Assembly (NCBI GenBank): GCA_950072105.1
Contig: CATMOE010000001.1
Span: forward strand, 154,096 to 218,095
Length of the DNA stretch: 64,000 nt
Direction of reading: 5' to 3'
Origin: an uncultured Dehalococcoidia bacterium
GTDB taxonomy: Bacteria; Chloroflexota; Dehalococcoidia; Lucifugimonadales; UBA3495
Shown here: positions 13,972 to 63,882 of the stretch, piece by piece
Numbering within the stretch: position 1 is the first letter of the stretch
How the letters are laid out: the number at the start of each line of letters is the position of its first letter
Made by a program: the position numbers and the translations under genes
The notes under the pieces: generated by a model
Told to the model about the DNA's origin: nothing
What the model saw: the letters and a program-made list of their open reading frames with translations, nothing else
Database searches by the model: none

Positions 13972-14095
13972 AAACCCTTCTGGTTAAGGCGCTCCGAATC
14001 GACTTGACCCACCGAGGTATTGATGTAGTATCAAGCCAGGTCCCTAGAAGCACGACGCCCGCAGGACTTTCTCCGCGGGACCCACGGAGGTTGTT

Positions 14096-15139
14096 ATGGA
14101 CTTTGGACTGTTTTTAGAGTTCCCGCGCCGAGAGGGCGGAACTCAACAAGAAGCGTTTCAGGAATGCTTCGCGTTGGCGGACGAGGGCGAAGCGCTAGGC
14201 GTGGATTCGGTCTGGTTGGCCGAATATCACTTCAACCCCGCGCGCGTGCTTTCCGCTCCCATAACCATCGCCAGCGCCCTCGCCGCCCGAACCAAGACGG
14301 TCAGAATCGGGCTTGCGGTGATCTGTTTGCCCTTGGGGAACCCGATACGCCTGGCTGAAGAGGTCGCTACTCTGGACCATATAAGCGAGGGCCGCCTGGA
14401 GTTCGGCGTGGGCCGGGGCACCTTCCCCAACGTGCATGAAGGTTACAACGTCCCCTTCAGCGAAAGCCGGGAGCGCTTCGACGAATTCCTTGATGTGATC
14501 GTGAAGTCATGGACCACTGAGTCTTTCTCATATGAAGGCAAGTACATCACCTGCAACGATCTTTCGGTGCATCCCAAACCGTTGCAGACTCCCCACCCTC
14601 CCATCCACATCGGCATCACCTCAGCGGAGAGCTTCCCAATCATGGGGAGCCTAGGCTATCCCATACTGATCAACCCGTCACGAGTATTCGCGCTGTCGGA
14701 ATTGGCCCCTTACATCTCTGAATACCGGAAGGCCTGGCAGAAGGCGGGTCACCAAGGACAGGGCAAGGTTGGGTTGCGCATCCCCATCTACGTGGCCGAC
14801 ACCGCCGAGCAAGCCTACGCAGAGCCCAGAGACAGCGCGATGTTGTCGGTGGAGCGTCTGGGGCAAAGGGTGGGGAGCTACGCCGCCTACGGGGGGACGA
14901 CGGGAGACTGGCAGGCCGAGTCGGACCGGATTCTGGCAGCGGACTATGACGAATGGCTGCGAGACAAAGTGGCGTACGGCACTCCGGAGGCGGTAGAGGA
15001 CCGGTTGCACATTTTGCAGGAAGAACTGGGTCTGGAGCAGATCATATTCGACGTGAACTACGGCAACCTAATCCCCCAGGAACGTCAACGCAAGTCCCTG
15101 AGGCTGCTCATGGAGAAGGTAGTCCCCAGTTTCAAATAG
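14096..15139 (+). CDS. Luciferase-like monooxygenase (LLM) family oxidoreductase
   Basis: SVWLAEYH, RLAEEVATLDHISEGRLEFGVGRG, PKPLQTPHPP. Confidence 0.9.
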   Translation: MDFGLFLEFPRREGGTQQEAFQECFALADEGEALGVDSVWLAEYHFNPARVLSAPITIASALAARTKTVRIGLAVICLPLGNPIRLAEEVATLDHISEGRLEFGVGRGTFPNVHEGYNVPFSESRERFDEFLDVIVKSWTTESFSYEGKYITCNDLSVHPKPLQTPHPPIHIGITSAESFPIMGSLGYPILINPSRVFALSELAPYISEYRKAWQKAGHQGQGKVGLRIPIYVADTAEQAYAEPRDSAMLSVERLGQRVGSYAAYGGTTGDWQAESDRILAADYDEWLRDKVAYGTPEAVEDRLHILQEELGLEQIIFDVNYGNLIPQERQRKSLRLLMEKVVPSFK

Positions 15140-34498: not shown

Positions 34499-35002
34499 CT
34501 AAATCTGGTGCTGCCAAACCGTCCCCTTGGGCGGCTCGTCTATCAGCCGGAACTGAGGGAGGGTGAAGCCGTCTTCGCCGTCTAGGAAAGCCACTTCCAC
34601 GCGCTTGCCGATGGCCACGTTCTCTTCTTTTTCCGGCTCCATGTTTTCGTCCACCAGGTTGGCGGTGATGCGTAGACCGTCATATTGATCGGGCTGTCCG
34701 CTTTGCTCGTCCAACTCCACCAATACGATGGCGAACGGAGCCCAATCCCGAAAGCTGGGAACGACGGTGTGAGCCACGATCTGGTAGCTGTATATGGTAC
34801 CTTTGCCGCTGACCTGATTCCATTCCCATTGCAATGAGGTGCACCAGGGACAACCGGGGCCCGGCTCTCCCCGTAACAGGCCGCAGTCCAAGCATTTCTT
34901 CACCACCAGCCGATGCTCGGCCGCCGCCTCGAAATACCCTTTGTATTCGGTATCAGCGTCCGAGATGTTGATCTGCTGTCCCCGGTATTCATACGAGGGC
35001 AT
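34499..35002 (-). CDS. DUF35 Zn-ribbon/OB-fold protein (ChsH2-like)
   Basis: CLDCG...CPWC, SGKGTIYSY, VELDE. Confidence 0.88.
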   Translation of the reverse strand: MPSYEYRGQQINISDADTEYKGYFEAAAEHRLVVKKCLDCGLLRGEPGPGCPWCTSLQWEWNQVSGKGTIYSYQIVAHTVVPSFRDWAPFAIVLVELDEQSGQPDQYDGLRITANLVDENMEPEKEENVAIGKRVEVAFLDGEDGFTLPQFRLIDEPPKGTVWQHQI

Positions 35003-35006
35003 ACCT

Positions 35007-36227
35007 TTATCTCCTCATGATCAGGGAGCTACCCACCGCCGGCGTGCCCCAACCCATGTTCATACTTACTTCAGCGTTCCTGACTTGGCGGCAATGGCCC
35101 TCCGAGTAGTCGTAGGTGTGGATGCCTTCCAGGGCCTGGGGGCAATAGTCATCCACCGTCCCACGCAATTGACGGACGTTTTCGATGACCATGTTCATAC
35201 CGTGGGTATACGCCTCGCACAGGTGGCCGCCGCTGGTGTTGTTGGGCCGCCGGCCGCCCAGATTGATCGTTCCGCTCTTTACGTAGTCCTTGCCTTCCCC
35301 CTTCTCGCACCACCCGTAATCCTCGAATTGGAGCAGGGCGGTGTAAGTGAAAGCGTCGTAACAACCGGTAACGTCCACATCGTCGTGCGTGACTCCCGCC
35401 AGTTCAAAAACCCTGGGGCCAACGTAGTAGCCGGCCACCCGGCTGGCGGGACCGTGCTGGTAGTGGAAGTCGCCGCCGGGCTTGGTCCCTCGGCCTTGAA
35501 CCCCCAGTATGTATACCGGTTTTTGCTTCAGGTCCTTAGCGCGCTCGGAGGACGTGACGATCACGCAAGTGGCGTTGTCCGTTTCCAGGCAGCAGTCCAG
35601 CAGGTGAGCCACCGGACGGATGATCCAGCGGGAATTCATCACATCTTCGACAGTCACCCGCTGTTTCATCAAGGCTTTAGGGTTATTGCTGGCGTGATTG
35701 CTGTGGGCCACTTTGATGTGGGCCAGATCCTCGTTCTTAACGCCATATTCCATCATGTGGCGGGTGAAGGTGAAAGAGAATTGCTGAACGGCGCTGATCA
35801 GGCCGTAGGGCCGCTTCATCAGGTCGATACCGGTGATGGGGGACGCGGCACGAACTCCTGTACCGCCGATGCGCATCTGGGAGTAGCCGTTCATCGACCG
35901 GAAGATGGCCACTGTGTCGCACATGCCCGCTTCGATCGCTCCCATGGCCAGGCCAACCAAGGCCTCGGTGCTGGAGCCACCCCCGGAGCAGTCCATGTAG
36001 AAGTTGGGCCTTAGGCCCAGGTCGTACATGATAGAGGTAGACGGCGTCGAGTCACCGCCATGGTAGCTCAACATCCCGTCCACGTCTCCCGGTTTGAGCC
36101 CCGCGTCGTTCATGGCATTGCGGATGGCCTCGGCGCCCATGGCCCGGGTAGTGCGGCCTGAGCCCCGGCTAAACTCGGTTTCGCCAACCCCGGCGATGCA
36201 GTATTTACCTCTCAAACTAGTGTTCAC
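35007..36227 (-). CDS. Thiolase-like protein (SCP2/Ltp type, possibly aldolase)
   Basis: IAGVGET, DCCLETD, YDAFT, NTSGGHL; upstream of a DUF35 gene. Confidence 0.88.
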   Translation of the reverse strand: MNTSLRGKYCIAGVGETEFSRGSGRTTRAMGAEAIRNAMNDAGLKPGDVDGMLSYHGGDSTPSTSIMYDLGLRPNFYMDCSGGGSSTEALVGLAMGAIEAGMCDTVAIFRSMNGYSQMRIGGTGVRAASPITGIDLMKRPYGLISAVQQFSFTFTRHMMEYGVKNEDLAHIKVAHSNHASNNPKALMKQRVTVEDVMNSRWIIRPVAHLLDCCLETDNATCVIVTSSERAKDLKQKPVYILGVQGRGTKPGGDFHYQHGPASRVAGYYVGPRVFELAGVTHDDVDVTGCYDAFTYTALLQFEDYGWCEKGEGKDYVKSGTINLGGRRPNNTSGGHLCEAYTHGMNMVIENVRQLRGTVDDYCPQALEGIHTYDYSEGHCRQVRNAEVSMNMGWGTPAVGSSLIMRR

Positions 36228-36286
36228 GTGGCCACCTTATGTAATGGATTGGTTAAAAGCGGTAACTTGATTCCTATTTCGTGTGG

Positions 36287-36355
36287 CCTTCACCCTGCCA
36301 CCGCTGCCATCGGCGGCACCCGTCTCCCTGCAGGAGAGGGGCCGGGGGTGAGGGG
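36287..36355. repeat. Degenerate REP-like palindrome (CCCTCTCCC...GGAGAGGG type)
   Basis: CCCGTCTCCCTGCAGGAGAGGGGCCGGGGGTGAGGGG directly after the stop of 36357-37649. Confidence 0.55.
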
Positions 36356-36356
36356 A

Positions 36357-37649
36357 TTAAAGCAGATTCCACCGGGGATTCTTGGCAGCCTCTTCTTTCA
36401 TATAGTCGACGATCCAGTCCCGCACATTTTCCTCTACGTAGATAGTCGGGCGGATCAAATCGGCTTCGTCGGAGATCAGTCCTTCCTTGATGGCGGTGGC
36501 AACTAAAGGCGAGCCAGGCAGGACCGGGCTTCCGATGCGGAGGTTGGCCATGGCCGGCTTGATGGAATGCAAAAACGCCAGCTTATCGGCCACCGTTTGC
36601 TCGGTTTCCCCCACCTCGCCAAAGCTCTGGGCGATGGTGTAATGGAGGCCCCCCTCTTCGCACATGGCGCAAACCTGGCGTAGCGGCTCCAGACGTTCAC
36701 CCAGAGTCTCGCCGTCGTGCAGATCACCCCTGATGCCTCCCATGATTACCAGGGCGCACCCGGACTGCTTCATCAGCCCTACGATCTCCGCATCGCAGCT
36801 AAAGGGGGCCAGACAGGTATTCCAGTTCAGTTTAAGGTCTGCCTCCAGAAACGCGTGGCACAGGGCCTTCGCGTGGTCCAGCGGGATGTTGAAGCCGTTG
36901 TCTATGAAGAACACTTTCCGCAGACCAAACTTCTCTTCCATCTCCTTAACTTCGCTGACGACTTCATCGATGGGCCGGATGACCCGCCAATCTGGCTCTT
37001 TCACTTGACCGTTGGAATCCGGCGTTGGATAGGAGAAGTCGCCCAGCTTGGTCAAGACGCCGATGCCGAAACCCGCCTTGGTGTACTTTTCCATGTCCAG
37101 GTCTTCCAGCCTTGGCGGCTTGTTGAAACCTGATTTGGCGCGGACCCCGTTGAACACTACCTCTCCGTTTTCCCGGTACACCAACCCGGACAGATGCCCG
37201 TAAGAGCTGTTGGAATCCAGCAGATCGGCCAGCTCGGCAAAAGTCTCGCCTCCATCCCCGGCGATCCCCAGATCCGGACCCATGTAGGCGAAACACTCTT
37301 TAGGCAGGAAGTTGAACGCCGGCCCGCCGACGACGATCTTGGCTGAGGAAAGGCTGCGAACCTTGTCGATAACTTCTTTAGAGGTAGGCAGCGCCCATTG
37401 GGGGTCGATATAGCTGTGATTGCCCAGATTGCGGATGGATATGCCCACCATCTCCGGCTGGAACTCCTTGACCGTGTCTTCCACGTCGGCGATGTAGTCG
37501 TCGGAGAACATCAAGTCAAGGACCTTAAGGCTGTGACGGTCCTGGTCCAAATGGCCGGCCACGTAAGCCAAACCAATGGGCAACGGCCGAGCGTCCATGC
37601 GGCTCATCAGCCGGTGGTGGCGGTTGGTCGCAATCAATAAGACTCTCAT
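36357..37649 (-). CDS. Cobalamin-binding radical-SAM-like protein lacking CxxxCxxC
   Basis: PIGLAYVA, GISIRN, VGGPAF, GDGGE B12-domain motifs; TKLGDFSYP where TKRGCxxxCxxC is expected. Confidence 0.75.
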   Translation of the reverse strand: MRVLLIATNRHHRLMSRMDARPLPIGLAYVAGHLDQDRHSLKVLDLMFSDDYIADVEDTVKEFQPEMVGISIRNLGNHSYIDPQWALPTSKEVIDKVRSLSSAKIVVGGPAFNFLPKECFAYMGPDLGIAGDGGETFAELADLLDSNSSYGHLSGLVYRENGEVVFNGVRAKSGFNKPPRLEDLDMEKYTKAGFGIGVLTKLGDFSYPTPDSNGQVKEPDWRVIRPIDEVVSEVKEMEEKFGLRKVFFIDNGFNIPLDHAKALCHAFLEADLKLNWNTCLAPFSCDAEIVGLMKQSGCALVIMGGIRGDLHDGETLGERLEPLRQVCAMCEEGGLHYTIAQSFGEVGETEQTVADKLAFLHSIKPAMANLRIGSPVLPGSPLVATAIKEGLISDEADLIRPTIYVEENVRDWIVDYMKEEAAKNPRWNLL

Positions 37650-38187: not shown

Positions 38188-39516
38188 ATGAGCCTGCCCC
38201 GTCCGTTAGAGGGAATCCGGGTGGTGGACTTCACCTGGGTTAGGGCCGGACCTTGGGCCGCCCGTTGGCTCGGCACATTTGGGGCCGAAGTTATCAAAGT
38301 AGAGTGGCCGGAAAATCTGGACATCCTGCGCATGAACCGGTTCACCATCCCCACCGGTGTGGAACCCGGACCCAACTCAACCGGCCAATTCGCCGACACC
38401 AACGCCAACAAACGTGGCATCACCCTCAATGTTCGAACTCCCAAGGGGCTTGAGGTCATCAAACAGCTCATCGCCGTTTCCGACGTCGTGATCGAAAACT
38501 TCAGCTCCCGGATCATGCAGCGGTTCGGCCTAGGCTACGACGAACTGAAACAGATCAAGCCCGACATCGTTTACATCTCCATGGCCGGCTTCGGCCAGAC
38601 CGGACGGCATCACTATTACGGCACCATGGGTCCGGCTGCCCAGGCCTTATCCGGACTGACATTTCTGTCCGGACTGCCCGGCGCTCCTCCGGCGGGTTGG
38701 GGCTGGTCGTACTTGGACGACACCGGCGGAATGTATGGGGCCATGTGCGCCTTGACCGCCTTGCGGCATCGCAATGCCACAGGGAAGGGACAGCACGTAG
38801 ACCTGTCCCAGATGATCACCGGCATCACCTTGACCGGCTCCGCTTTCTTGGATAAGACCGTCAACGGCCGCGAAGCCCGCCGAGAAGGGTATCCCCCCGG
38901 CAACCGAACCACCTGGCCCGGCGCGCCCGTCACCAACAATTACCGGGGTCCCACGGTGGCCCCTCACAACAGCTACCGAACCAAGGGCGGCGGCTACAAC
39001 GACTGGTGCGTCATCGCCTGCTTCTCCAATCAAGAGTGGAAGAATCTGCTCAAACTCATGGGGCCGCCCTCGTGGGCGGACGCCTCCAGGTTCGACACGT
39101 TGAGCGGACGCCTCGAACATCAAGAGGATTTAGACCGGGGCATCGAATCCTGGACTAAGACCTTGGAGAAGTACGAGTTGGCGGACAAGTGCCAGGCAGC
39201 CGGCGTGCGGGCTATGCCGGTGCAGAGCTCCGAAGACCGTGTGGAGCACGATCCACAACTAAGAGACCGGGGCATGTACACCGAGATGGACCACCCCATG
39301 TTAGGACGGTGGAAATTCCAGAACGCTCCGTTCAAGTTATCCGGTTCGCCGCCGGAGATGCATCGGCCTCCTCCCATGATCGGTCAGCACAATCGTGAAG
39401 TCATGGAGGAGCTACTGGGTCTCAGCCATCGCGAACTTGAAGATGGTTATAAGGACGGCACTTTTTGGCCTGAAGAGATGCCGATGTACCCCTACGTTGA
39501 GGAGGCAATGAAGTGA
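38188..39516 (+). CDS. Class III (CaiB/BaiF) CoA transferase
   Basis: PLEGIRVVD, GAEVIKVE, NANKRGITLN, ENF, GFGQTG, YLDD. Confidence 0.92.
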   Translation: MSLPRPLEGIRVVDFTWVRAGPWAARWLGTFGAEVIKVEWPENLDILRMNRFTIPTGVEPGPNSTGQFADTNANKRGITLNVRTPKGLEVIKQLIAVSDVVIENFSSRIMQRFGLGYDELKQIKPDIVYISMAGFGQTGRHHYYGTMGPAAQALSGLTFLSGLPGAPPAGWGWSYLDDTGGMYGAMCALTALRHRNATGKGQHVDLSQMITGITLTGSAFLDKTVNGREARREGYPPGNRTTWPGAPVTNNYRGPTVAPHNSYRTKGGGYNDWCVIACFSNQEWKNLLKLMGPPSWADASRFDTLSGRLEHQEDLDRGIESWTKTLEKYELADKCQAAGVRAMPVQSSEDRVEHDPQLRDRGMYTEMDHPMLGRWKFQNAPFKLSGSPPEMHRPPPMIGQHNREVMEELLGLSHRELEDGYKDGTFWPEEMPMYPYVEEAMK

Positions 39517-40790
39517 CCAACGATGCCTCGTCCAACTCCGACGGACTCGCCGGACCTTTGTCAGGACTCAGAGTCCTAGAACTGGCCGACGAAAAGGGCC
39601 AATTTTGCGGCAAGTTGATGGGAGACTTGGGCGCCGACGTTATCAAGATCGAACCTCGAGGAGGGCAGAACACCCGCTCGGTAGGCCCATTTTACAAAGA
39701 CATCCCCCACCCGGACCGTAGCCTTTCTTTCTGGCATTACAACACTTCCAAACGGGGCATCACCCTGAATCTGGAATCAACCGAAGGGCGGGAGTTGTTC
39801 CTCCGACTAACGGCCACCGCGGACATAGTTCTAGAAACCTTCCCTCCCGGCTATCTTCCCGCGCTGGGTTTGGGATACAAAGACCTGGCCGCCGGGAACC
39901 CCGGTTTAGTCGTGTGTTCATTGACGCCATTCGGGCAGACGGGACCGTGGCGCGACTATCTCACCTGCGATCTGGCCCACCTGGCAGCCGGCGGCCAGAT
40001 GGCCTCGTCGGGCTACGACTCCGACGATGTCGCCGACGCCCCTCCCATCGCCCCCGGCGGCGGCAACGCCTGGCATATCGGCAGCCATTACGCCTACATG
40101 GGTATCATGGCCGCTCTTTTCTACCGCGATACCACCGGCGAAGGCCAATACATCGACGCTTCGGTCCACGAAGCCTGCGCCCTCACCACCGAAGGGGCCA
40201 TCGCCATATATCTCTCAACCGGTGAGGTTGTGCAACGGCACACCGGCCGCCACGCCTCGCCCGATAACTCGGTCAAGATTCAACTGCCCACCCAGGACGG
40301 CGGCTGGGTCAACGTTACCCGGTCCGGGTCGGCATTGAACCCGGCCCGTTTGCGCCGGTTGGCCGAATGGATGGACGAGCACGGGCTGGCCCAGGACCTG
40401 CTGGACGAAAAATACCAAGACTTGGCCACGGTCCAGGCCGATGCCCGGCACACCACCGACGTGCTGGCCAACTTTTTCGCCAACATGCCCCAAGAGGACC
40501 TATGGACCGGCGGTCAGGAGCGGGACTTCCCCTGGGGAGCGATCCGGACGATGGACGAGATCATGGGAGACCCGCATCTCGAAGACCGGGGGTTCTTCGT
40601 GGAAGTGGAACACCCGGAACTGGGCCAAAGCTTTACCTATCCCGGAGCGGCGGCGATCTACAACGGCTCGCCCTGGGCCATCTCCCGCCGCGCCCCGTTG
40701 ATCGGCGAGCACAACGAGGATATCTTTTGCGGGGAACTGGCGCTCAGTAAGGGAGAACTTACCCTGTTGGCGGAATCCGGAGTGATTTAG
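39513..40790 (+). CDS. Class III CoA transferase (probably non-catalytic subunit)
   Basis: LGADVIKIEP, NTSKRGITLN, PFGQTGP; catalytic Asp not evident. Confidence 0.88.
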   Translation: MTNDASSNSDGLAGPLSGLRVLELADEKGQFCGKLMGDLGADVIKIEPRGGQNTRSVGPFYKDIPHPDRSLSFWHYNTSKRGITLNLESTEGRELFLRLTATADIVLETFPPGYLPALGLGYKDLAAGNPGLVVCSLTPFGQTGPWRDYLTCDLAHLAAGGQMASSGYDSDDVADAPPIAPGGGNAWHIGSHYAYMGIMAALFYRDTTGEGQYIDASVHEACALTTEGAIAIYLSTGEVVQRHTGRHASPDNSVKIQLPTQDGGWVNVTRSGSALNPARLRRLAEWMDEHGLAQDLLDEKYQDLATVQADARHTTDVLANFFANMPQEDLWTGGQERDFPWGAIRTMDEIMGDPHLEDRGFFVEVEHPELGQSFTYPGAAAIYNGSPWAISRRAPLIGEHNEDIFCGELALSKGELTLLAESGVI

Positions 40791-42286: not shown

Positions 42287-42348
42287 TAACTTGAGAAATC
42301 CTCGCTATTTTCCCCAGATCAGATGATAACGGCAGGAGGTAGCTCTTT

Positions 42349-43530
42349 ATGAGCTTGAGAGCTAAAGCGGCAGTGGTCGGTTTCGCCGAGCTGCCAACCC
42401 AACGCACCTACCCCGGCAGGACGACCAATTCCCTCTTGGCGGAGGCCTGCCGCATGGCCATCGCCGATGCCGGGTTGACAAAGGCGGACATTGACGGGCT
42501 GATCACCCGGGGAACCGACGTTACCCCCGTGGAACTGGGCGAATACATGGGTATGCCATTGAGCTTCAGCGAGGGCATTACCCAACACGGCTCCAGCGGC
42601 GCCCACTCTTTGGCACTAGCGGCGTCCTCGATCAATTCCGGATTGGCCACCACGGTGATCTGCACGTTCGGTGGGACAAGAGACCCGGCCATCGGCGGGC
42701 TCGCCCCCGGACAGGTTCGGGGGACTCCACCGGCTACCAAGGGTACCGAGTTCGAGGCCCCCTTCGGTATGGCCCCCGGCGCGAACACGGGTTACGGCCT
42801 GATGAAACGGCGGCACATGTACGAGTTCGGCACCACCCAAGAGCAGTTCGCCAAGATGGCGGTGAACCAGCGGTTCAATGCCCTGACCAACCCCAACGCC
42901 GTGTTTCACGACCAACCCATCACGGTGGACGACGTGTTGACTTCCCGGATGGTCAACGACCTTTTGCACCTGTTGGAGTGCGTGATGCCCTGCGCCGGGG
43001 CCGCGGCCTGCATCGTTACGTCGGCGGAACGGGCCAAGACCTTGCCCAATCCTCCGGGGTATATCCTGGGGGCCGCCGCCGGAGTGAGCGGCCACGACAC
43101 GATCTGGCAGGCGGACCGGATAACCACGTCACCGGTGGTGATATCCGCCCGCAAAGCGTTGGAGATGTCAGGCTACAGCCCCAAGGACATTGAGTTCGCT
43201 GAATTCTATGATTGATACACCATCCTTGAGGCCGTGTGCCTCGAAGATGCCGGATTCTGTGAAAAGGGCGAGATCGGACCCTTCTTCGACGAAGTAGACA
43301 CAACCTATAAGGGTACATTCCCTATAAATACCGACGGGGGGCAGCTATCGGGCGGGCAGCCCGTGGGCGGCGCCGGCGGCTTCCGCCACGTGATCGAGGG
43401 CGTCCGCCAGATCATGGGCCGGGCGGATGACCGCCAAGTCGCCAAGCACGACCTTTCCATGGTCAATGGTTGAGGCGGCACCGGGAGCGTGATGTGCACG
43501 CTCATATTGGGGACCGAAGCGACTACTTAA
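42349..43530 (+). CDS. Thiolase-like (SCP2/Ltp type) protein with two predicted selenocysteines (TGA 43213-43215 and 43471-43473), 393 aa
   Basis: One frame throughout: ...EFYD-U-YTILEAVCLEDAGFCEKGE...NTDGGQLS...MVNG-U-GGTGSVMCTLILGTEATT-TAA; a hairpin follows each TGA. Confidence 0.82.
43221..43249 (+). promoter_or_regulatory. SECIS-like hairpin 1 of the thiolase
   Basis: CATC-CTT-GAGGC-CGTGT-GCCTC-GAA-GATG; loop after 17 nt from the UGA. Confidence 0.72.
43485..43503 (+). promoter_or_regulatory. SECIS-like hairpin 2 of the thiolase
   Basis: GAGCGTG-ATGTG-CACGCTC perfect 7-bp stem; loop after 18 nt from the UGA. Confidence 0.7.
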
Positions 43531-43540
43531 CGAAGCCTAA

Positions 43541-43607
43541 TCCGTTCGTCCTGAGCTTGTCGAAGGACCAGCTAAGCGGGTGGTTCGACAGGCTCACCAC
43601 GAACGGA
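43541..43607. repeat. REP-like inverted doublet
   Basis: TCCGTTCGTCCTGAGCTTGTCGAAGGA ... TGGTTCGACAGGCTCACCACGAACGGA. Confidence 0.7.
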
Positions 43608-43634
43608 ATGAGAAAGGAATGACGAGGCAGGAAT

Positions 43635-44051
43635 ATGACCACGGAATACCAGAAACCTTTACCCAGGCCGCTTAGTCCCGGGCTGACCAAACCCTTCTGG
43701 GACGCGGCCAAGCGTCACGAGTTGGTGATGCCCCGTTGCCAGAAATGCGACCACTTCTTTTTCTACCCCAGGGAGGAGTGTCCCAAATGCCTCTCCCCGG
43801 ACATCCAGTGGGCTAGTGTGAGCGGCCGCGGACGGCTGCATACTTATACCGTCGTCCACCAACCGGTGAACCCCGCTTTCCGCGAGGATGCTCCCCACGT
43901 GTACTCGGTGATTCAATTGGACGAGGGTCCCCGCATGATCTCCAACATGGTGGAATGCGATTTAGACGACCTGAGAGTCGATATGCCGGTGGTGGCAGTC
44001 TATGATGATGTGACACCGGATTGGACTCTGGTAAAATTCAAACCGGCATGA
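43635..44051 (+). CDS. DUF35 Zn-ribbon/OB-fold protein
   Basis: PFWDAA, CQKC..FYPREECPKC, SGRG, LDEGPRM. Confidence 0.9.
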   Translation: MTTEYQKPLPRPLSPGLTKPFWDAAKRHELVMPRCQKCDHFFFYPREECPKCLSPDIQWASVSGRGRLHTYTVVHQPVNPAFREDAPHVYSVIQLDEGPRMISNMVECDLDDLRVDMPVVAVYDDVTPDWTLVKFKPA

Positions 44052-46471: not shown

Positions 46472-47593
46472 CTACCCCTCGGCCAAAACTTTGAGCCTGC
46501 TTATAATCTCCCGGTTGGAAGGCCGGTCGTTGATTCTCTTCCCTACGTACATCCACCGAACCTTGCCCGTCCGATCAAGCAAGAATGTGGCTGGGGCAGC
46601 TATACCGTCACCCAAAAGGTCATAAACGCCGTACTCCTTGACGACCGAGGCTTCGGGGTCGTACAGGATAGGGAACTCCAGCCCCAAACCATCAACCGCA
46701 TATGCAGCGCCGGAAAGATCATCGGTGCTAATGGCCAAGATATCCGCCTGCAGACTCTTGATCAGATCGTAATCCCCTTGCAACTCCACCAGTTGCGCTC
46801 GGCAATAGACTCACCAGAAGGCCCGGTAAAAGATTAGGACGACGTTGCCCCGTTCCAGGTAATCGTCCAAATAGACCTGCTGGCCTTGGGCGCTGGGCAA
46901 GACAAAACTGCGTGCGCTACCGGCCGCCGCATCGGTATCCACCGCGGCTGCTGGGGGGCTGACGGTCGTCGGGGTCGGATCTGGTATAGGCGTCTTAGTC
47001 GGCTCGATGGAAACAACGGCCGCCGTGGGAACTGGCGTGGCTTCTTCGGCCGATTGCTCCTTCCCTGGTTTGGCCGCCGTGTTTTGCTGGAGACCCAGCG
47101 TAGGCGGAGGAAGCGAAGTTGACGTCGGTAGTCGAACCACCGGCGGGACTACCGCAACGGGCACGGGTGTAACGGCGGGTGGTGTCGCAAGAGTAGTGGA
47201 GGTGGGAGCGATCGCAGGATTGACGGTCGGGACTGGCGCCGTGGTCGAGACCACCAGTACAGCTGTTGCCTCAGCGATCAACTTTTGTACTGCTAGCTTC
47301 GGTGAATCGGAAATAGTTTCGGTCGGCGGGACCTGAGGAGATGGGGCGAAGTCGGTCGTCGCTGGCACATTTACGGGCGTGGTGAAATTGGTCGCTGCCG
47401 GAGGTTCACCGATGGGCGAGGAAGCTTCGGCGATTTCAGAGGCTTGCCGATGGAGCGGCGTTGATTGGGAATCCCGCTGTACCGAGGAAAGATTCCCGGG
47501 TGGCGCGGAGGTTGCGCAAGCCGCGAAGATTAACAACAAGGCGAGCCACGCGGGCCACTTCAATTTGGCGATGGGAGAAATTTGGCGAGTCAT
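46472..47593 (-). CDS. Lipoprotein with Pro/Thr/Ala-rich linker and C-terminal AhpC/TSA (peroxiredoxin-like) domain with UxxC (Sec at TGA 46811-46813)
   Basis: ORFs 46811-47638 and 46472-46789 are in frame: VLIFYRAFW-U-VYCRAQLVEL...AISTD...PATFLLD; N-terminal LALLLIFAAC lipobox-like signal. Confidence 0.85.
46780..46796 (-). promoter_or_regulatory. SECIS-like hairpin
   Basis: Minus strand GCAACT-GGTGG-AGTTGC; loop after 20 nt from the UGA. Confidence 0.72.
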
Positions 47594-47675
47594 CAGGTTA
47601 CATACGATTGGCAGTGTCGAAAGGTTCCTTGGAATCACCGGTCAGATTGAATACGGCATTTTCTACCAGTAGGCT

Positions 47676-48974
47676 CTACGGCATGTCCTCCGGGTAATCC
47701 ATTCCGATGTGGCCTTGGGCTTCCAGCTCGGCGTATTCTTCGTCGCTGCAATCCAGGAGCGTCTTGTAGATGTATTCGTTGTCTTCACCCAGACGCAAGG
47801 GTCCTCGCCGAATCTTGATGGGCGTCTCGGACATCTTGTAGGGCGCGCCGGGATAGCGGTGGGTGCCCGTATCCTCCTGGTATACCTCTTCGAACACCTC
47901 GCGTTCATTCAAGTGTGGGTCTTCATAAGCGTCCCGTTGGTCCATGACCGGACCGGCGGCGACGCCCACGCTTTGAAGCATACGCATCACGTCATTAGAC
48001 TCTAGCTGTTCAGTCCATTGGGCGATGTTCCGGTCCAATTCATCGTGGTGCCGGTAGCGGGAGATGGCGTCGGCGAATCTGTCTTCCTGGCACCAGTCCG
48101 GATTGCCCAGGACTTGAACGAAGGCGGCCCAGTCCTTGTCGTCGAAAAGGGTGATGGTCACCCATCGGTCGACGCCTTTGCATGGATAGCAACCCTGGAC
48201 GGCATACGTATGGTGGTTGCCCAGTGTGCTGGCATTGCGGCCGTTCATGGAGAAGTCCATGAAGGATTGTCCCAAATAGGGCAATGTGTTCTCCGCCTGG
48301 GATAGCTCGATCAGCTGGCCCCTGCCGGTGCGTTTCCGGTGGTGCAGCGCCGCCAGGACGGCGAACGCCCCCTGAGTACCACCGGCGGCATCGGACATCA
48401 ACACCGTGCTGTTGGCCGACGGGTCCATGTCGGCATAGCCCCGCTGCAGGGTGTGGCCGATCACTCCCTCGATGTGCAGTCCATAGGCCCGGTGGTTCCG
48501 GTAAGCGCCTGTATTACCGTAGGCGGGCATGCGCAGCATGATGATCCCGGGATTCTGCTCCTGGAGCAACGAGTAAGAAATGCCCAGTTTTTCCATGGTG
48601 GATGTGGGATTGTTCTCTACGAAAACGTCGCTGATCTTGACCAGACGCTTAAAGATGTCCATACCGCCGGGCCGGAGAATGTCCAGGGTCATGCCCAGTT
48701 TGTTCCGGGCGTGGGCGTTGAAGATGGGATACCGGTTCCAAGGCCGGGCGGCGGGCACCCGGCCGGGCATGGCTCCGGCCCAAGGGGACATGTCCTTGAG
48801 GTCTTCCTCGGTTGGATGCGCCATGGATCCTCGCGCCAAAGGACCGAATGTGTTGAGGGACTCGATCCTGATCACTTCGGCGCCAAGGTCGGCGAGAAAC
48901 GACGTGCAGTACGGTCCGGCCCAAACGACCGTTATGTCAAGTACCCTGATTCCTTCTAATGGCAACTTGGGCAT
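47676..48974 (-). CDS. Class III CoA transferase
   Basis: PLEGIRVLD, WAGP, LGAEVIRIE, RNK, MSDAAGG. Confidence 0.9.
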   Translation of the reverse strand: MPKLPLEGIRVLDITVVWAGPYCTSFLADLGAEVIRIESLNTFGPLARGSMAHPTEEDLKDMSPWAGAMPGRVPAARPWNRYPIFNAHARNKLGMTLDILRPGGMDIFKRLVKISDVFVENNPTSTMEKLGISYSLLQEQNPGIIMLRMPAYGNTGAYRNHRAYGLHIEGVIGHTLQRGYADMDPSANSTVLMSDAAGGTQGAFAVLAALHHRKRTGRGQLIELSQAENTLPYLGQSFMDFSMNGRNASTLGNHHTYAVQGCYPCKGVDRWVTITLFDDKDWAAFVQVLGNPDWCQEDRFADAISRYRHHDELDRNIAQWTEQLESNDVMRMLQSVGVAAGPVMDQRDAYEDPHLNEREVFEEVYQEDTGTHRYPGAPYKMSETPIKIRRGPLRLGEDNEYIYKTLLDCSDEEYAELEAQGHIGMDYPEDMP

Positions 48975-48976
48975 GT

Positions 48977-50191
48977 CTAGATCGCTCCCTGCTGCCGAAG
49001 GCGCACAACATCGCCGCTGCTGTAACCCAGCCGGTTGAGGATCTCGTTGTTGTGCTCGCCCAGGAGAGGAGCAGGCCGGCGGATGGACCAGGGCGAGTCG
49101 TTCATGATGAATGGGCGCGCCGGGTAGTTCAGTGTCCCCGCAACCGGATGGTCGATCTCAATGAATCCGCCCCGGCTGTTGAATTCAGTATCGTCGGCCA
49201 ACTCCTCCATCGTGTTCAATGGCGCGCTGATCACTCTGGATTCTTGAGCGATGGCCCAAGCCTCCGCTTTGGTGTGCTCCAGGGACCACGTCAGAATCAT
49301 CGTGTCGAACTCTTCCTTAAGATCCGGGTCTCTTTGCGCACCAGGCGCGTACCACTTGGGGTCTTGCAATTCGGCGGGAGACCCCAACATGCTCACCGCA
49401 CGGGGGAAATAATTGCGCCCCGCCGAAATTTCGAGATACCCGTCGCTGCAAGGAATCGCGCCGTAGGGGTAACCGCCCCCGCTGCCCAGAGGACTCCGGC
49501 CCGTGATGTCGCCGCTGTATTGATAGCCGATCAACGTGCTCATCCGCCGGTCGATGGACCCCACCTGAGTTTCCATGATGGACACGTCCACATGTTGGCC
49601 GATCCCCTGACCTCTAGCTCCGAACAGAGCTCCCATGGTGGCAACCGATGCGGTGGCCCCAGCCTGGTAAAGGAGAACATTCACGCCCAGCTTGACCGGC
49701 TCCCGCTCGGCAATTCCGGTGGAGTACATCTCACCCCCCATGCCGTAGACCATCACTTCGGCCATCCGAAAATCCCGGTACGGGCCGGTCTGGCCGAAGT
49801 TGGAGATCGAGGTCATCACCAGAGTGGGATTGATCGATCGCAAAGTAGCGTGGTCCAGTCCCCAACAAGCCAACGTTCCGGGACGAAAACTCTCCACCAC
49901 AATATCCGTTTCCTTAACCAACTCCCTGACAACGGAGCGCGCGGCCTCGGTCTTCAGGTCCAGCGTTATGCTCTGCTTGTTGGTATTCAGGTGCAGGAAA
50001 AGACCGCTCTTCTCGCCATGGGGAACGTCTCCTGGGAACGGCCCAAGCCGCCGTGCGCCGTCGCCAACTCCTGGACGCTCCACCTTGATGACCTCCGCGC
50101 CGTAGTCGGCCAGCAGCTTGGTGCAGTAAGGTCCGGCGATCAAGTTGGTCAGGTCCAGGACTTTAACATCACTTAGAGCCGAGTCAGGCAA
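48977..50191 (-). CDS. Class III CoA transferase (probably non-catalytic subunit)
   Basis: AGPYCTKLLADYGAEVIKVE, NTNKQSITLDL, NFGQTGPY; catalytic Asp not evident. Confidence 0.88.
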   Translation of the reverse strand: MPDSALSDVKVLDLTNLIAGPYCTKLLADYGAEVIKVERPGVGDGARRLGPFPGDVPHGEKSGLFLHLNTNKQSITLDLKTEAARSVVRELVKETDIVVESFRPGTLACWGLDHATLRSINPTLVMTSISNFGQTGPYRDFRMAEVMVYGMGGEMYSTGIAEREPVKLGVNVLLYQAGATASVATMGALFGARGQGIGQHVDVSIMETQVGSIDRRMSTLIGYQYSGDITGRSPLGSGGGYPYGAIPCSDGYLEISAGRNYFPRAVSMLGSPAELQDPKWYAPGAQRDPDLKEEFDTMILTWSLEHTKAEAWAIAQESRVISAPLNTMEELADDTEFNSRGGFIEIDHPVAGTLNYPARPFIMNDSPWSIRRPAPLLGEHNNEILNRLGYSSGDVVRLRQQGAI

Positions 50192-60501: not shown

Positions 60502-60615
60502 CTGCCGGCGCCAGCCGATACCGCATCGCTTTGACTTGAAGATACAGGCGCCGGTTTCGCTGCTTTATACTAGGGCTTGAAAGTTCAATACGCAACGGGA
60601 ACCCAGGGAGAAGGG

Positions 60616-62553
60616 ATGCCAGAAGTTCAAGTAGCGCCCTACGGCTCGTGGAAATCACCGGTAACATCGGACCTCATCGTTGCCGAATCGATCAGGTTGG
60701 GCCAGTTGGCTCTTGACGGAGAGGATATCTATTGGGTGGAGCAGCGCCCCCGGGAAGGCGGGCGCAACGTCATCGTCCGCAGGACGGCAGATGAAAATAT
60801 CGACGACGTGACGCCTTCACCCTTCAACGCCTGCAGCCGGGTGCACGAGTATGGCGGCGGCGCTTTTTGCGTGGCCGATGGGGTGGTCTACTTCGTCAAC
60901 TACGACGACCAGCGCATGTATCGGCACCGGCATGGCGAAGCGCCGGTCCCCATCACGCCCGAAGGAGACATGCGATACGCCGACATGGTCGTTAACTACG
61001 TCAGGGAAGAAATCATCTGTGTACGCGAGGACCATACCTCGTCCTCTCAGGAGGCGGTAAACACTTTGGTCAGCCTTTCCATTGAGGGTGTTAGCTCCGG
61101 CCAGGTGCTGGTTTCAAGCGCGGACTTCTATTCTTCGCCACGGCTCAGCGCCGATGGTGGGAAGCTGACCTGGCTCAGTTGGAACCATCCCAACATGCCC
61201 TGGGATGGCTGCGAATTATGGGTGTCGGACCTAAACTCAAGCGGCTCCTTGGAGCTTCCCGAGAAAGTGGCCGGTGGCCCGGAAGAATCGATTTTTCAGC
61301 CGGAGTGGTCCCCGAACGGAACTCTATATTTCGTGTCAGACCGCACGGGCTGGTGGAATATCTACCGCTGGATCAACGGAGCCGTCGAGCCGGTCACGGA
61401 GATTGAAGCCGAGTTCGCCAGGCCGCAGTGGATCTTCGGTTCGTCCACTTACGCCTTCCAATCGGATAGCCGGATCATCTGCTCTTATGTCCAGGGTGGC
61501 AACTGGAAGGTGGCCAGTGTGGATACGCAACTCCGGGAACTGAATCCCATACCCACCCCTTATTCGGACATGGCGAGGGGAGACCTGCGGGTGGCATCGG
61601 ACACTGCGGTAATCATCGCCGGGTCCCCGGTCGAGGCGTTGTCGGTTATCCGATTGGACCTGGCGACGGGCGATACCCAAGTGTTGCGGACTTCCGGCGA
61701 TGTAAGCCTGGAGGGGGCGTATTTGTCTACCCCTGAAGCCATCGAATACCCCACCGAAAATGGCCTGACCGCCCACGCGTTCTACTACCCGCCGTCCAAC
61801 GGGGACTACGAACCAACCCCCGGCGAAAAACCGCCGTTGCTGGTGAAAAGCCACGGTGGCCCCACCAACGCAACCTCCGTCTCCCTGGATCTGGTCGTTC
61901 AATATTGGACCAGCCGGGGTTTCGCCGTTCTGGACGTCAACTATGGGGGCAGCACCGCCTACGGCAGGGCGTACCGGGAACGGTTGAAGGGACAGTGGGG
62001 CATCGTGGACGTGGACGACTGCGTCAACGGGGCGTTGTACTTAGTGCGGCAAGGTTTGGCGGATGGGAAGAGGCTGGCCATTGACGGCGGCAGCGCCGGG
62101 GGCTACACCACCCTGGCCGCCCTGACCTTCCGGGACGTGTTCGCCGCCGGGGCCAGTTACTACGGCGTTAGCGACCTGGAGACACTGGCCAAGGATACCC
62201 ATAAGTTCGAATCGCGGTACCTGGACGGTCTGGTCGGAGCCTACCCCCAAGAGGCGGAAGTGTACCGGCAAAGGTCTCCCATCAACTTTACCAGTCAGCT
62301 TTCCTGCCCACTGATCCTGTTTCAAGGCCTGGAGGACAAGATCGTACCGCCGGACCAAGCAGAGTCCATGTTCGAAGCTGTGAAGGCCAAGGGTATCGCC
62401 ACGGCATATCTACCATTCCCAGGTGAGCAGCACGGATTCCGCCGCTCCGAGAACATCAAGCGGGCTTTGGACGCCGAGCTTTACTTCTACTCGAAGATCT
62501 TCGGATTTAACGCGGCGGGACCAATGGAACCGGTAGACATCGTAAACCTCTGA
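60616..62553 (+). CDS. S9 family (prolyl oligopeptidase/acylaminoacyl peptidase-like) peptidase
   Basis: APYGSW, HGGP, GGSAGG, QGLED, EQHGF. Confidence 0.93.
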   Translation: MPEVQVAPYGSWKSPVTSDLIVAESIRLGQLALDGEDIYWVEQRPREGGRNVIVRRTADENIDDVTPSPFNACSRVHEYGGGAFCVADGVVYFVNYDDQRMYRHRHGEAPVPITPEGDMRYADMVVNYVREEIICVREDHTSSSQEAVNTLVSLSIEGVSSGQVLVSSADFYSSPRLSADGGKLTWLSWNHPNMPWDGCELWVSDLNSSGSLELPEKVAGGPEESIFQPEWSPNGTLYFVSDRTGWWNIYRWINGAVEPVTEIEAEFARPQWIFGSSTYAFQSDSRIICSYVQGGNWKVASVDTQLRELNPIPTPYSDMARGDLRVASDTAVIIAGSPVEALSVIRLDLATGDTQVLRTSGDVSLEGAYLSTPEAIEYPTENGLTAHAFYYPPSNGDYEPTPGEKPPLLVKSHGGPTNATSVSLDLVVQYWTSRGFAVLDVNYGGSTAYGRAYRERLKGQWGIVDVDDCVNGALYLVRQGLADGKRLAIDGGSAGGYTTLAALTFRDVFAAGASYYGVSDLETLAKDTHKFESRYLDGLVGAYPQEAEVYRQRSPINFTSQLSCPLILFQGLEDKIVPPDQAESMFEAVKAKGIATAYLPFPGEQHGFRRSENIKRALDAELYFYSKIFGFNAAGPMEPVDIVNL

Positions 62554-62673
62554 CGCCGTCCCGCAGCCCCATCTTGTCGGCAAATCGGGCGCTCAAACTG
62601 GCATCTAATCGGCAATGGTTGGCATCTTAATTTATTGGACCGGACAACGGTTGGGTCCAAAGGAGACAAACCG

Positions 62674-63882
62674 ATGCAAGAAGCTAACATTACCGTATAT
62701 GGCGCCCCTTGGTGCCCCGATTGCCGCCGTTCCAAGCAGTTCTTGGGCGAGCAGCGCATACCTTACATCTGGGTGGACATCGACGAGGACGAGGAAGGCA
62801 GGAAGCAGGTCCAGGCAGTTAACGACGGGAAGCAGATAATCCCCACCATCGTTTTTCAGGATGGCTCGATCTTGGTGGAGCCGTCCAATGCCGAACTGGC
62901 CGCCAAGCTGGGCATCAGCCCCAAAGCTAAACGGGAGTTTTACGACCTGATCGTGATCGGCGGCGGTCCGGCAGGACTGTCCGCCGCTCTTTATGCCGCC
63001 AGAGAGGGCATCGAAACCCTGATCATCGAGCGTAGCGGTGTAGGCGGACAGGCCGGCACCACCGAGAGGATCGACAACTACCCCGGTTTTGCCCAAGGCA
63101 TCGGCGGCGCTGAGTTGGCCGACGCCATGAGGGAGCACGCCGAGCGGTTCGACGTGGAGATACTGCAGGCTCAAACAGTGACCAGCATCGAAGCCCAAGG
63201 CGACTACAAGATGATATCTACCGAGTCGGGCGATTCCTACTGCAGCCGCTCGTTGCTGCTAACTCCCGGCGCAACCTACCGGCGCCTCAACGTGCCGGGC
63301 GAGGAAGACCTGATCGGCGCGGGCATTCACTTTTGCGCGACCTGCGACGGCCCATTCTATAAAGGCCAGGAACTGCTGGTAGTAGGTGGCGGAAACAGCG
63401 GTGTGGAAGAGGGTCTATTCCTGACCAAATTTGCCACCAAAGTGACCATATTGGAGGTTGGCGAGCGGCTAAGAGCCAGTCAGATACTTCAGGAAAAGGC
63501 CGCCAGCCACCCCCAGATCGAAGTGCGTCTTAATACCACCGTGGTGGAGTTCAAGGGAGACGGAAAGCTGAGTTCCGTGGTGATCAAAAACACGGCCAGC
63601 GGAGAAACCGAGGAGATCACTCCGGGCGCGGTCTTCGTCTTCATCGGCCTGCTGCCCAACACCGCCTTCGTCAAGGGTTCCGTAGACCTGGACCAGTGGG
63701 GGTCCATCTCCACCAGCCCTACCATGGAAACCAGCCTGGAAGGTGTCTTCGCCGCGGGGGACGCCCGGTCGGGAAGCACCAAGCAAGTGGCATCGGCGGT
63801 GGGAGAAGGGGCCACGGCGGCATTGATGATCCGCCAATATCTGGAACGGACACAGGGAAGCCGGGCGTACAAGGGGGACTAG
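62674..63882 (+). CDS. Glutaredoxin-like domain fused to thioredoxin reductase
   Basis: WCPDC...IPT N-domain; GGGPAG, CATCDG, GGGNSG, FAAGD; AAGGAG before ATG 62674. Confidence 0.9.
   Translation: MQEANITVYGAPWCPDCRRSKQFLGEQRIPYIWVDIDEDEEGRKQVQAVNDGKQIIPTIVFQDGSILVEPSNAELAAKLGISPKAKREFYDLIVIGGGPAGLSAALYAAREGIETLIIERSGVGGQAGTTERIDNYPGFAQGIGGAELADAMREHAERFDVEILQAQTVTSIEAQGDYKMISTESGDSYCSRSLLLTPGATYRRLNVPGEEDLIGAGIHFCATCDGPFYKGQELLVVGGGNSGVEEGLFLTKFATKVTILEVGERLRASQILQEKAASHPQIEVRLNTTVVEFKGDGKLSSVVIKNTASGETEEITPGAVFVFIGLLPNTAFVKGSVDLDQWGSISTSPTMETSLEGVFAAGDARSGSTKQVASAVGEGATAALMIRQYLERTQGSRAYKGD

Follow-up and report, generated by a model that had tools for sequence, protein, structure and literature searches.

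CtSal of Comamonas testosteroni is a retro-aldolase of the bile-acid C5 side chain, solved (9MYR) bound to the DUF35 domain of CtShy. In its description (PMC12329534), Tyr302 and Cys304 of a Y-D-C-Y motif are essential, the variants Y302F, C304A, C304S and C304H being inactive; in the proposed mechanism Tyr302 is the base that acts on the beta-hydroxyl, and Cys304, as acid, protonates the acyl-coenzyme A (acyl-CoA) enolate. Gln347 and Gln352 hydrogen-bond this Cys and stabilise the catalytic thiolate, the oxyanion hole is made by the backbone NH of Gly391 together with Gln161, and a Gly stands in place of the thiolase nucleophile, so that thiolysis is held to be impossible. Classical thiolases carry a CxGGGxG cysteine motif (PMC7682436), and in SCP2-type thiolases an X-D-C-X loop replaces the NEAF motif and supplies a catalytic Cys (PMC7682436; PMC12329534). 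Here we describe a CtSal-like gene of the thiolase fold in a 64,000-nucleotide stretch of DNA from an uncultured Dehalococcoidia bacterium (the window). Our analysis indicates that the gene is one intact unit and that its two internal TGA codons almost certainly encode selenocysteine (Sec). Its elements, including hairpins resembling selenocysteine insertion sequences (SECIS), are:

42349..43530, + strand: gene for a thiolase-fold, Sal-like predicted selenoprotein; 393 codons, two in-frame TGA codons, stop codon TAA at 43528-43530
42334..42339, + strand: Shine-Dalgarno-like AGGAGG, read from the sequence, 9 nt 5' of the ATG at 42349
43213..43215, + strand: TGA, predicted Sec289 (site 1), aligned with the catalytic acid Cys304 of CtSal
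43471..43473, + strand: TGA, predicted Sec375 (site 2), aligned with CtSal Thr389
43221..43249, + strand: SECIS-like hairpin 1, 4 bp + 7 bp; loop CGUGU begins 20 nt after the U of UGA
43485..43503, + strand: SECIS-like hairpin 2, 7 bp; loop AUGUG begins 21 nt after the U of UGA

Read in a single frame, 42349-43530 contains exactly two in-frame stops, TGA at 43213 and TGA at 43471, and yields a protein of normal length (393 amino acids, aa) that ends at the TAA at 43530, as a preliminary description of this DNA had proposed. Residue 289 lies in the context AEFYD-U-YTILE (in the read-through protein, …EFAEFYD-U-YTILEAVCLEDAGFCEK), and residue 375, 86 residues further along the chain, in SMVNG-U-GGTGS. 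Open reading frame (ORF) calling with table 11 splits the gene into pieces of 288 and 79 aa and a tail, and one Pfam match, Thiolase_C_1 (3.4e-44, residues 247-389), runs over both TGAs. The host assembly measures 4.08 Mb in 164 contigs, with 57.6% G+C.

We weighed the Sec assignment against the explanation that one or both TGAs are something else: the mark of a pseudogene in decay, a product of faulty assembly, a genuine stop at 374 behind which the tail is meaningless, or a codon read through by another tRNA. A scan of genome contigs from species-representative genomes found 583 relatives, and we read the codons in the best 80 of the 583 and in the window's own locus. These 81 loci come nearly all from Dehalococcoidia, SAR202 or Chloroflexota metagenome-assembled genomes (MAGs), with one labelled Entotheonellaceae and one Actinomycetota, and a few genomes contribute two to three paralogous loci each. 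Site 1 is TGA in 43 loci, TGC or TGT in 36 and an Ala codon (GCN) in 2; of the 80 loci that extend over site 2, 78 have TGA there and 2 have AAC. The codon pairs (site 1/site 2) are:

TGA/TGA: 42 loci
TGC/TGA: 28 loci
TGT/TGA: 8 loci
GCT/AAC: 1 locus
GCA/AAC: 1 locus
TGA, with site 2 past the contig end: 1 locus

Neither site is ever TAA or TAG, and the true terminators are TAA (45 loci) or TAG (35) and never TGA, one locus being cut. The same codons are thus TGA in dozens of species, which argues against a stop, a decayed gene or a faulty assembly. The preliminary description had considered site 2 less secure than site 1; the counts reverse that order, since its TGA is the better conserved (78/80 against 43/81). 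It had also proposed comparing TGA, Cys and Trp at the two columns in relatives. The comparison shows TGA conserved at both sites and Cys at site 1, but almost no Cys at site 2.

Closer to the host, 100 genomes of the same family were searched in six frames (orthologue cut-off E <= 1e-100), and 10 of them, G000 included, have an orthologue. Seven full-length two-TGA copies occur in six genomes, one orthologue ends at a contig edge beyond the first TGA, and that of G031 (52% identity) has a single TGA, reading LYD-C-YT at site 1 and VNG-U-GG at site 2. When translated, the intact copies carry U in the same two columns, save G031 with its C at site 1. Some relatives' copies look broken (G019, G083), which favours the explanation by decay or misassembly. 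In L035 (G019) the frame is lost beyond about residue 245, and L037 (G083) is in two overlapping pieces; each may be a pseudogene or an assembly error.

Database entries end where a Sec codon would be misread. Among the 120 best homologues in protein databases, 38 stop at the residue immediately preceding site 1, and another 78, with Cys at site 1, stop immediately ahead of site 2; the four full-length entries read C/N, C/S, P/N and P/N at the two sites. Relative to 13 close orthologues, the differences at codon positions 1/2/3 number 653/419/1756 before the first TGA, 90/83/483 between the TGAs and 27/23/75 after the second. This third-position excess past both TGAs indicates that purifying selection in frame reaches the TAA, a constraint at odds with a meaningless tail. 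The residues after site 2 are moreover predicted to form the last beta-strand of the domain in an AlphaFold2 model, in agreement with the plausible final strand suggested at the outset.

Judged by the usual bacterial SECIS criteria, our standard of comparison for both hairpins, each UGA is followed within the ORF by a SECIS-like stem-loop; both hairpins had been noticed in the preliminary description, and both show compensatory changes in relatives. Folding of the single sequence gives modest support (hairpin 1: -14.1 kcal/mol, z -2.10, 9 of 200 shuffles as good; hairpin 2: -18.6 kcal/mol, z -2.37, 2 of 200), and the comparative data carry the weight. Over the 43 TGA rows of hairpin 1 (39 distinct), 86.7% of cells are paired, as against 34-48% with the partner slid by 1-3 columns, and the pair 16-30 is G-C in 32 rows and C-G in 7. 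The same structure in the 36 Cys-codon rows has 60.6% of cells paired, which 74 of 500 shuffles equal; at least 9 of the 11 pairs form in 39/43 TGA rows versus 3/36 Cys rows. Hairpin 1 is missing in Cys-codon homologues.

For hairpin 2, aligned over 77 rows (62 distinct; one sequence containing N was left out), 80.9% of cells are paired. Both sides have changed in 34 cells, for example from U-A to A-U in 22 rows, and none of 500 shuffles matches the pairing, the both-side changes or the covariation score. Sliding by -2 still leaves 58.3% paired, which reflects subfamilies with the hairpin two bases earlier. In 76/77 rows a hairpin with 6 or more bp places its loop 15-27 nt 3' of the site 2 TGA, the commonest registers being +21 (35), +19 (24) and +20 (13). 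The window and G031 differ in encoded residues at this hairpin (GSVMCTL vs LSEMCSL), yet three stem pairs are swapped in a compensatory way. An Rfam scan of 42300-43650 (E <= 10) returned no SECIS family, only chance microRNA and small-RNA matches on an intergenic palindrome described below. The hairpin spacing had been likened to that of three selenoprotein genes of known type in the window. An AhpC/TSA-like gene does show a similar distance; the other two were not found, and our screens of the window for further selenoprotein genes yielded the AhpC/TSA-like one only.

The host genome encodes the Sec machinery. A search for selA, selB, selC and selD, suggested in the preliminary description, found tRNA-Sec, selA, selB and selD all present: ARAGORN detected one tRNA-Sec, on contig C5, and the matches of selB (351.6 bits), selA (550.1 bits) and selD (385.3 bits) all exceed curated cut-offs. 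The host selD gene carries one in-frame TGA. As selA occurs in 92 of the 100 same-family genomes, Sec use is general in the lineage and co-occurrence does not discriminate; G022, which holds an orthologue, gave no selA match at 67% completeness. TGA is also used as an ordinary stop. Of the 18 window genes whose stops were read, 8 end in TGA, the first CoA-transferase gene and the DUF35 gene among them, as do 278 of the 1027 frames in the genome that run for 400 codons or more without a stop. A reassigned genetic code is excluded, because TGA ends neighbouring genes and many long frames.

Independent assemblies agree on both codons. A contig of run X3 covers the whole of this gene region and one of run X12 covers 42733-43520; each has the same one difference (42962) and keeps both TGAs, so the concern over sequence errors raised in the preliminary description finds no echo in DNA contigs of two runs. 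Contigs from RNA libraries of two studies, which are assembled sequences from libraries that can contain DNA, bridge the first TGA unchanged (X15, 42919-43316; X17, 43081-43254).

Our data suggest that both TGAs behave as Sec codons, because they are conserved in orthologues, followed by coding sequence and by covarying hairpins, and accompanied by the Sec machinery. They act as such in every sequence test run, a reading supported at the level of sequence. That both sites are Sec is, in our estimation, highly probable, and the comparisons indicate that neither TGA is a sequencing error or a decay mutation. The want of close Cys homologues at site 2 is the other point in favour of a TGA that is not Sec; set against the conserved codons, the compensatory hairpins after both sites, the agreeing assemblies and the TGA-terminated neighbours, that explanation appears largely refuted already, and we give it very little credence.

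A search of the Protein Data Bank returned 9myr_A as the best solved match (E 1.1e-80, residues 1-387), followed by 4u4e (1.6e-64), 6ok1 (TcLtp2; 3.5e-49), and then archaeal and SCP2-type thiolases and BbsB. NCBIfam gave generic thiolase models only, all under cut-off (best NF004811, 283 bits vs 421), and no curated selenoprotein family covering the protein was among the matches. We mapped residues from the 9myr_A alignment (chain numbering offset 24) and read their conservation in alignment A1:

42589..42591, + strand: Gly81 (GGC) at the position of the thiolase nucleophile Cys; aligned with CtSal Gly89; a Gly codon in 79/79 covering loci
43207..43209, + strand: Tyr287 (TAT), aligned with the catalytic base Tyr302 of CtSal and Tyr294 of TcLtp2; invariant in A1
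43342..43359, + strand: codons of Gln332 and Gln337, aligned with CtSal Gln347 and Gln352; both invariant in A1
43477..43479, + strand: Gly377 (GGC), aligned with CtSal Gly391, whose backbone NH serves the oxyanion hole; invariant in A1

In this alignment Sec289 falls as the counterpart of CtSal Cys304, whose thiol is indispensable there; site 1 had rightly been placed at the Cys of the H/Y-D-C-F/Y loop. Sec375 is two residues N-terminal to Gly377, the equivalent of CtSal Gly391, in the C-terminal Gly-rich loop to which site 2 had been assigned. The nucleophile region reads ITQHG81SSG and so lacks a Cys, again as first described, and among the 150 nearest 50%-identity representatives this column holds Gly in 131 and Cys in none. 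Two further early readings stand: Gln332 replaces a His of the paralogue at 35007-36227, and that paralogue has Trp at site 2 (and Ala at site 1). An hhalign comparison with the genome's classical thiolase (L157; probability 48%, E 1.8e-4) pairs QHG-SSG with RQC-SSG, the nucleophile Cys matching Gly81, and NEAF with Y-D-U-Y, the His of GHP matching Gln337. Because Gly replaces the nucleophile Cys, the sequence places the protein in the nucleophile-less, Sal/SLP-like, DUF35-associated aldolase branch and not among true thiolases.

Two other assignments were tried and rejected. A true thiolase, classical or SCP2-type, does not accommodate Gly81 at the CxS Cys and Gln337 at the GHP His in the hhalign comparison. 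An Ltp2-type aldolase would have YDHF where the window protein has YDUY, and a Tyr at the Tyr344 position, where it has none.

The gene forms a two-gene unit with a DUF35 gene, and several same-strand genes lie upstream:

43635..44051, + strand: DUF35 partner gene, 138 aa; C-x2-C-x10-C-x2-C zinc ribbon and oligonucleotide/oligosaccharide-binding (OB) fold; stop TGA; 104 nt downstream
43536-43610: long imperfect palindrome between the selenoprotein stop and the DUF35 start
38188..40790, + strand: two overlapping family III CoA-transferase genes (Pfam CoA_transf_3, 3.8e-100 and 1.1e-80)

The DUF35 protein matches the Pfam families zf-ChsH2 (1.8e-13) and OB_ChsH2_C (3.2e-20), and 77 of the 80 related loci have a homologue, which in most of them comes immediately downstream in the same orientation. 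The CoA-transferase pair recurs at 20 of the 80 and is a possible, weakly conserved operon context; SnoaL-like and questin-oxidase-like genes, also upstream on the same strand, recur only in the two closest. The arms of the palindrome have about 90 blastn-short matches on many host contigs, and it looks like a repeated element of the repetitive extragenic palindromic (REP) kind inserted within the two-gene unit.

Our favoured explanation taken whole, a two-Sec Sal-like aldolase with a DUF35 partner, we consider reasonably probable. SelB and tRNA-Sec would insert Sec at each UGA, with the apical loop of an in-frame SECIS following about 17-18 nt later. The characterised members of the branch, CtSal and TcLtp2, are retro-aldolases that cleave beta-hydroxyacyl-CoA side chains, and the window enzyme would be of the same type. 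By homology to CtSal, Tyr287 would take the proton from the beta-hydroxyl, the backbone NH of Gly377 would stabilise the thioester enolate, and Sec289, in place of Cys304, would donate a proton to the alpha-carbon, its selenolate held by Gln332 and Gln337; we put the chances of this course of catalysis at slightly better than even. Because it sits in the loop that carries the oxyanion-hole Gly, Sec375 probably faces the same alpha-carbon. More speculatively, it may be a second proton relay or a resolving group, and might join reversibly to residue 289 through an Se-Se or Se-S bond, so that the catalytic chalcogen is protected or reset in oxic sea water. The zinc-ribbon/OB (DUF35) protein would pair with the enzyme structurally, as DUF35 does in the solved complexes with Sal and Ltp2, and the substrate is probably a CoA thioester made by CoA-transferases like those upstream.

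The codon counts also fit a different enzyme. Retention of Sec at site 2 (78/80 loci) beside a site 1 that alternates between Cys and Sec matches the behaviour of a Sec with its resolving chalcogen, and residues 289 and 375 might cycle between selenols and a diselenide (a selenenylsulfide in the Cys289 forms), cleaving acyl-CoA reductively at the alpha-carbon in the manner of glycine or proline reductase, with re-reduction of a thioredoxin type. At site 2 the close relatives without Sec carry Asn, Ser or Thr, so Sec375 would be an added function, and the window contains a glutaredoxin-thioredoxin-reductase fusion gene and the AhpC-like selenoprotein gene, any link of these to the thiolase-fold gene being conjectural. 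Against such redox chemistry, the acid-base residues of CtSal are all kept (Tyr287, Gln332, Gln337 and Gly377), and no reductase or thioredoxin gene is syntenic at the 80 loci, searched with the window's neighbouring genes. We regard a two-Sec redox enzyme as improbable, and extend the same scepticism to the idea that two selenols meet over the acyl-CoA alpha-carbon as a catalytic diselenide/selenol pair. Were that idea true, the thiolase scaffold would host chemistry not known for it, a reductive or selenium-assisted C-C/C-X cleavage acting on recalcitrant alicyclic acids in the deep ocean, and selenium would be indispensable at position 375, where cysteine could not stand in.

The replacement of the nucleophile Cys by Gly, beside two strong nucleophiles in the active-site loops, raises a further alternative: Sec375 or Sec289 could take over from the N-terminal Cys, giving a true thiolase or acyltransferase that works through an acyl-selenoester. 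The catalytic His of thiolases is Gln in the window protein, and Asn, Ser or Thr at site 2 suffices for function in relatives. In CtSal, of the same architecture, the equivalent Cys acts as an acid and thiolysis is held to be impossible (PMC12329534). A covalent role for either Sec is, on these grounds, distinctly unlikely.

Several observations weigh against the two-Sec Sal-like aldolase that we favour. Gln161, the second oxyanion-hole residue of CtSal, is Ala in the window protein, so the active site is not a copy of that of CtSal, and the AlphaFold2 model is mediocre (pLDDT, the predicted local distance difference test score, 67.6, with active-site loops below 50). No MaoC-type hydratase gene was seen adjoining the gene in the ORFs scanned. 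Close relatives offer no Cys at site 2, where the full-length homologues carry Asn or Ser, and for a Sec position this near-absence of Cys is out of the ordinary. Across the 150 nearest 50%-identity representatives, 60 have Cys at site 1, 24 have Ala and 22 have Ser; the residues at site 2 vary widely (Asn 25, Thr 14, Gln 13, others) and include Cys only twice, each time with a non-Cys residue at site 1 and His in the Gln337 column. A tree-controlled test of hairpin 1 against TGA at site 1 was underpowered and not significant, yielding 4 independent pairs only, with 3.1 concordant, 0 opposite and a median p of 0.25. No RNA-library contig bridges the second TGA by 31 nt to either side, one reaching just 8 nt beyond it. 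Finally, the equivalence of Sec375 to the Cys of the classical CxG motif is inferred from the CtSal Gly391 mapping and from equal spacing, 16 residues separating that Cys or Sec375 from the shared C-terminal TE in both proteins. Direct alignment of the two did not succeed: hhalign ended at residue 347, and MAFFT set the Cys 4 columns ahead of Sec375 and opened a 5-residue gap behind the Gly-rich motif that both share.

We followed the two sites on a FastTree tree of 81 proteins built with both Sec columns masked. Site 1 requires 7-8 switches between Sec and Cys, of which 4-5 are forced by well-supported branches, compared with a mean of about 27 after shuffling; at site 2, Sec was lost once, in the Ala/Asn pair. 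Such a natural Cys/Sec series at one catalytic position bears on what selenium buys an acid-base enzyme. Genome G144, of the same class, has four paralogues (L059, L074, L075 and L076) that read C/U, A/N, U/U and C/U at the two sites, a natural series inside one cell. L082 and L087, from the MAGs labelled Entotheonellaceae and Actinomycetota, are near-identical two-Sec copies and sisters within the Chloroflexota clade, a placement that points to horizontal transfer or mis-binning.

Other features of the window are:

46475-47638, - strand: AhpC/TSA (peroxiredoxin-like) gene with an in-frame TGA at 46813 (W-U-V-Y-C) and a downstream hairpin; by its sequence a selenoprotein of known type
60577-63882, + strand: S9 peptidase ORF and glutaredoxin-thioredoxin-reductase fusion ORF in the same frame, split by TGA 62551 and a short linker; probably two genes
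34499-37649, - strand: second pair of thiolase-like and DUF35 genes, adjoining a gene for a B12-binding-domain protein; the thiolase-like paralogue is at 35007-36227
13015-15139, 38188-40790 and 47676-50191: together, four family III CoA-transferase genes and two luciferase-like monooxygenase genes

Such a catabolic gene make-up, rich in paralogues, is typical of SAR202.

To our knowledge, almost every selenoprotein is a redox enzyme, and almost every one has a twin that contains Cys. A thiolase of Clostridium kluyveri reportedly contains selenium, there as non-specific selenomethionine and not as UGA-encoded Sec. In the literature searched (thiolase/acetyl-CoA acetyltransferase, SAR202 and Dehalococcoidia selenoproteins), we found no published report of a UGA-encoded selenoprotein of the thiolase fold, in keeping with the preliminary remark that thiolases are not an established selenoprotein family. 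Thiolase, acetyltransferase, lipid-transfer and acyl-CoA are absent from the main text of a 2026 review (PMC13188914) and of the deep-Sep paper (PMC12013277). The text on BSepDB (111 families; PMC13326102) names no thiolase, acetyltransferase, lipid or aldolase, and its supplementary file, possibly incomplete, has no entry under thiolase, acetyltransferase, lipid-transfer, aldolase or SCP. The sequence data thus point to a real selenoprotein family, unpublished as far as we found, that combines Sal-type thiolase-fold aldolases with UGA-encoded selenoproteins. At site 1, Sec would replace a residue that in the closest relative has been shown by experiment to transfer a proton to a carbanion, and a second Sec, almost without a Cys twin, would lie in the same part of the active site. 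With its 583 relatives in species-representative genomes the family is large; it is concentrated in SAR202/Dehalococcoidia and is common in ocean SAR202-type bacteria. Because public gene calls cut its proteins to 288 or about 370 residues, their metabolic role and the selenium demand of these bacteria have been missed.

Set beside CtSal, the window protein shares the Gly at the nucleophile position, a Y-D-C/U-Y motif with the catalytic Tyr (Sec being taken as the chalcogen analogue of Cys), both Gln residues, the oxyanion-hole Gly and a DUF35 partner. It differs in the predicted replacement of Cys304 by Sec and of Thr389 by a second Sec, and in the change of Gln161 to Ala. Its DUF35 protein is free-standing (138 aa) with a canonical C4 zinc ribbon, whereas that of CtSal is fused to a MaoC hydratase and is of the Cys3His type, and its host is a marine Dehalococcoidia/SAR202-type bacterium. 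With TcLtp2-ChsH2(DUF35), the steroid C3 side-chain aldolase of Thermomonospora curvata (6OK1), it has in common the lack of a nucleophile Cys, the YD-motif Tyr (Tyr294, here Tyr287) and a DUF35 partner. TcLtp2 has YDHF and a second catalytic Tyr344, and because Sec and approximately Pro338 replace that His and that Tyr in the window protein, its acid would differ from that of TcLtp2. The SCP2-type thiolases and TbSLP (HDCF/YDCF loop) resemble it in that site 1 corresponds to the catalytic Cys of their X-D-C-X loop; SCP2-thiolases keep the nucleophile Cys and the catalytic His, where the window protein has Gly and Gln. Known bacterial selenoprotein genes match it in the in-frame UGA, the loop about 20 nt downstream, the orthologues with a Cys codon (at site 1) and the presence of selA/selB/selC/selD. 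The window protein stands apart from them in its two predicted Sec residues 86 positions apart, in a site 2 almost without Cys counterparts, and in a likely role that would be acid-base catalysis instead of classical thiol-disulfide redox chemistry.

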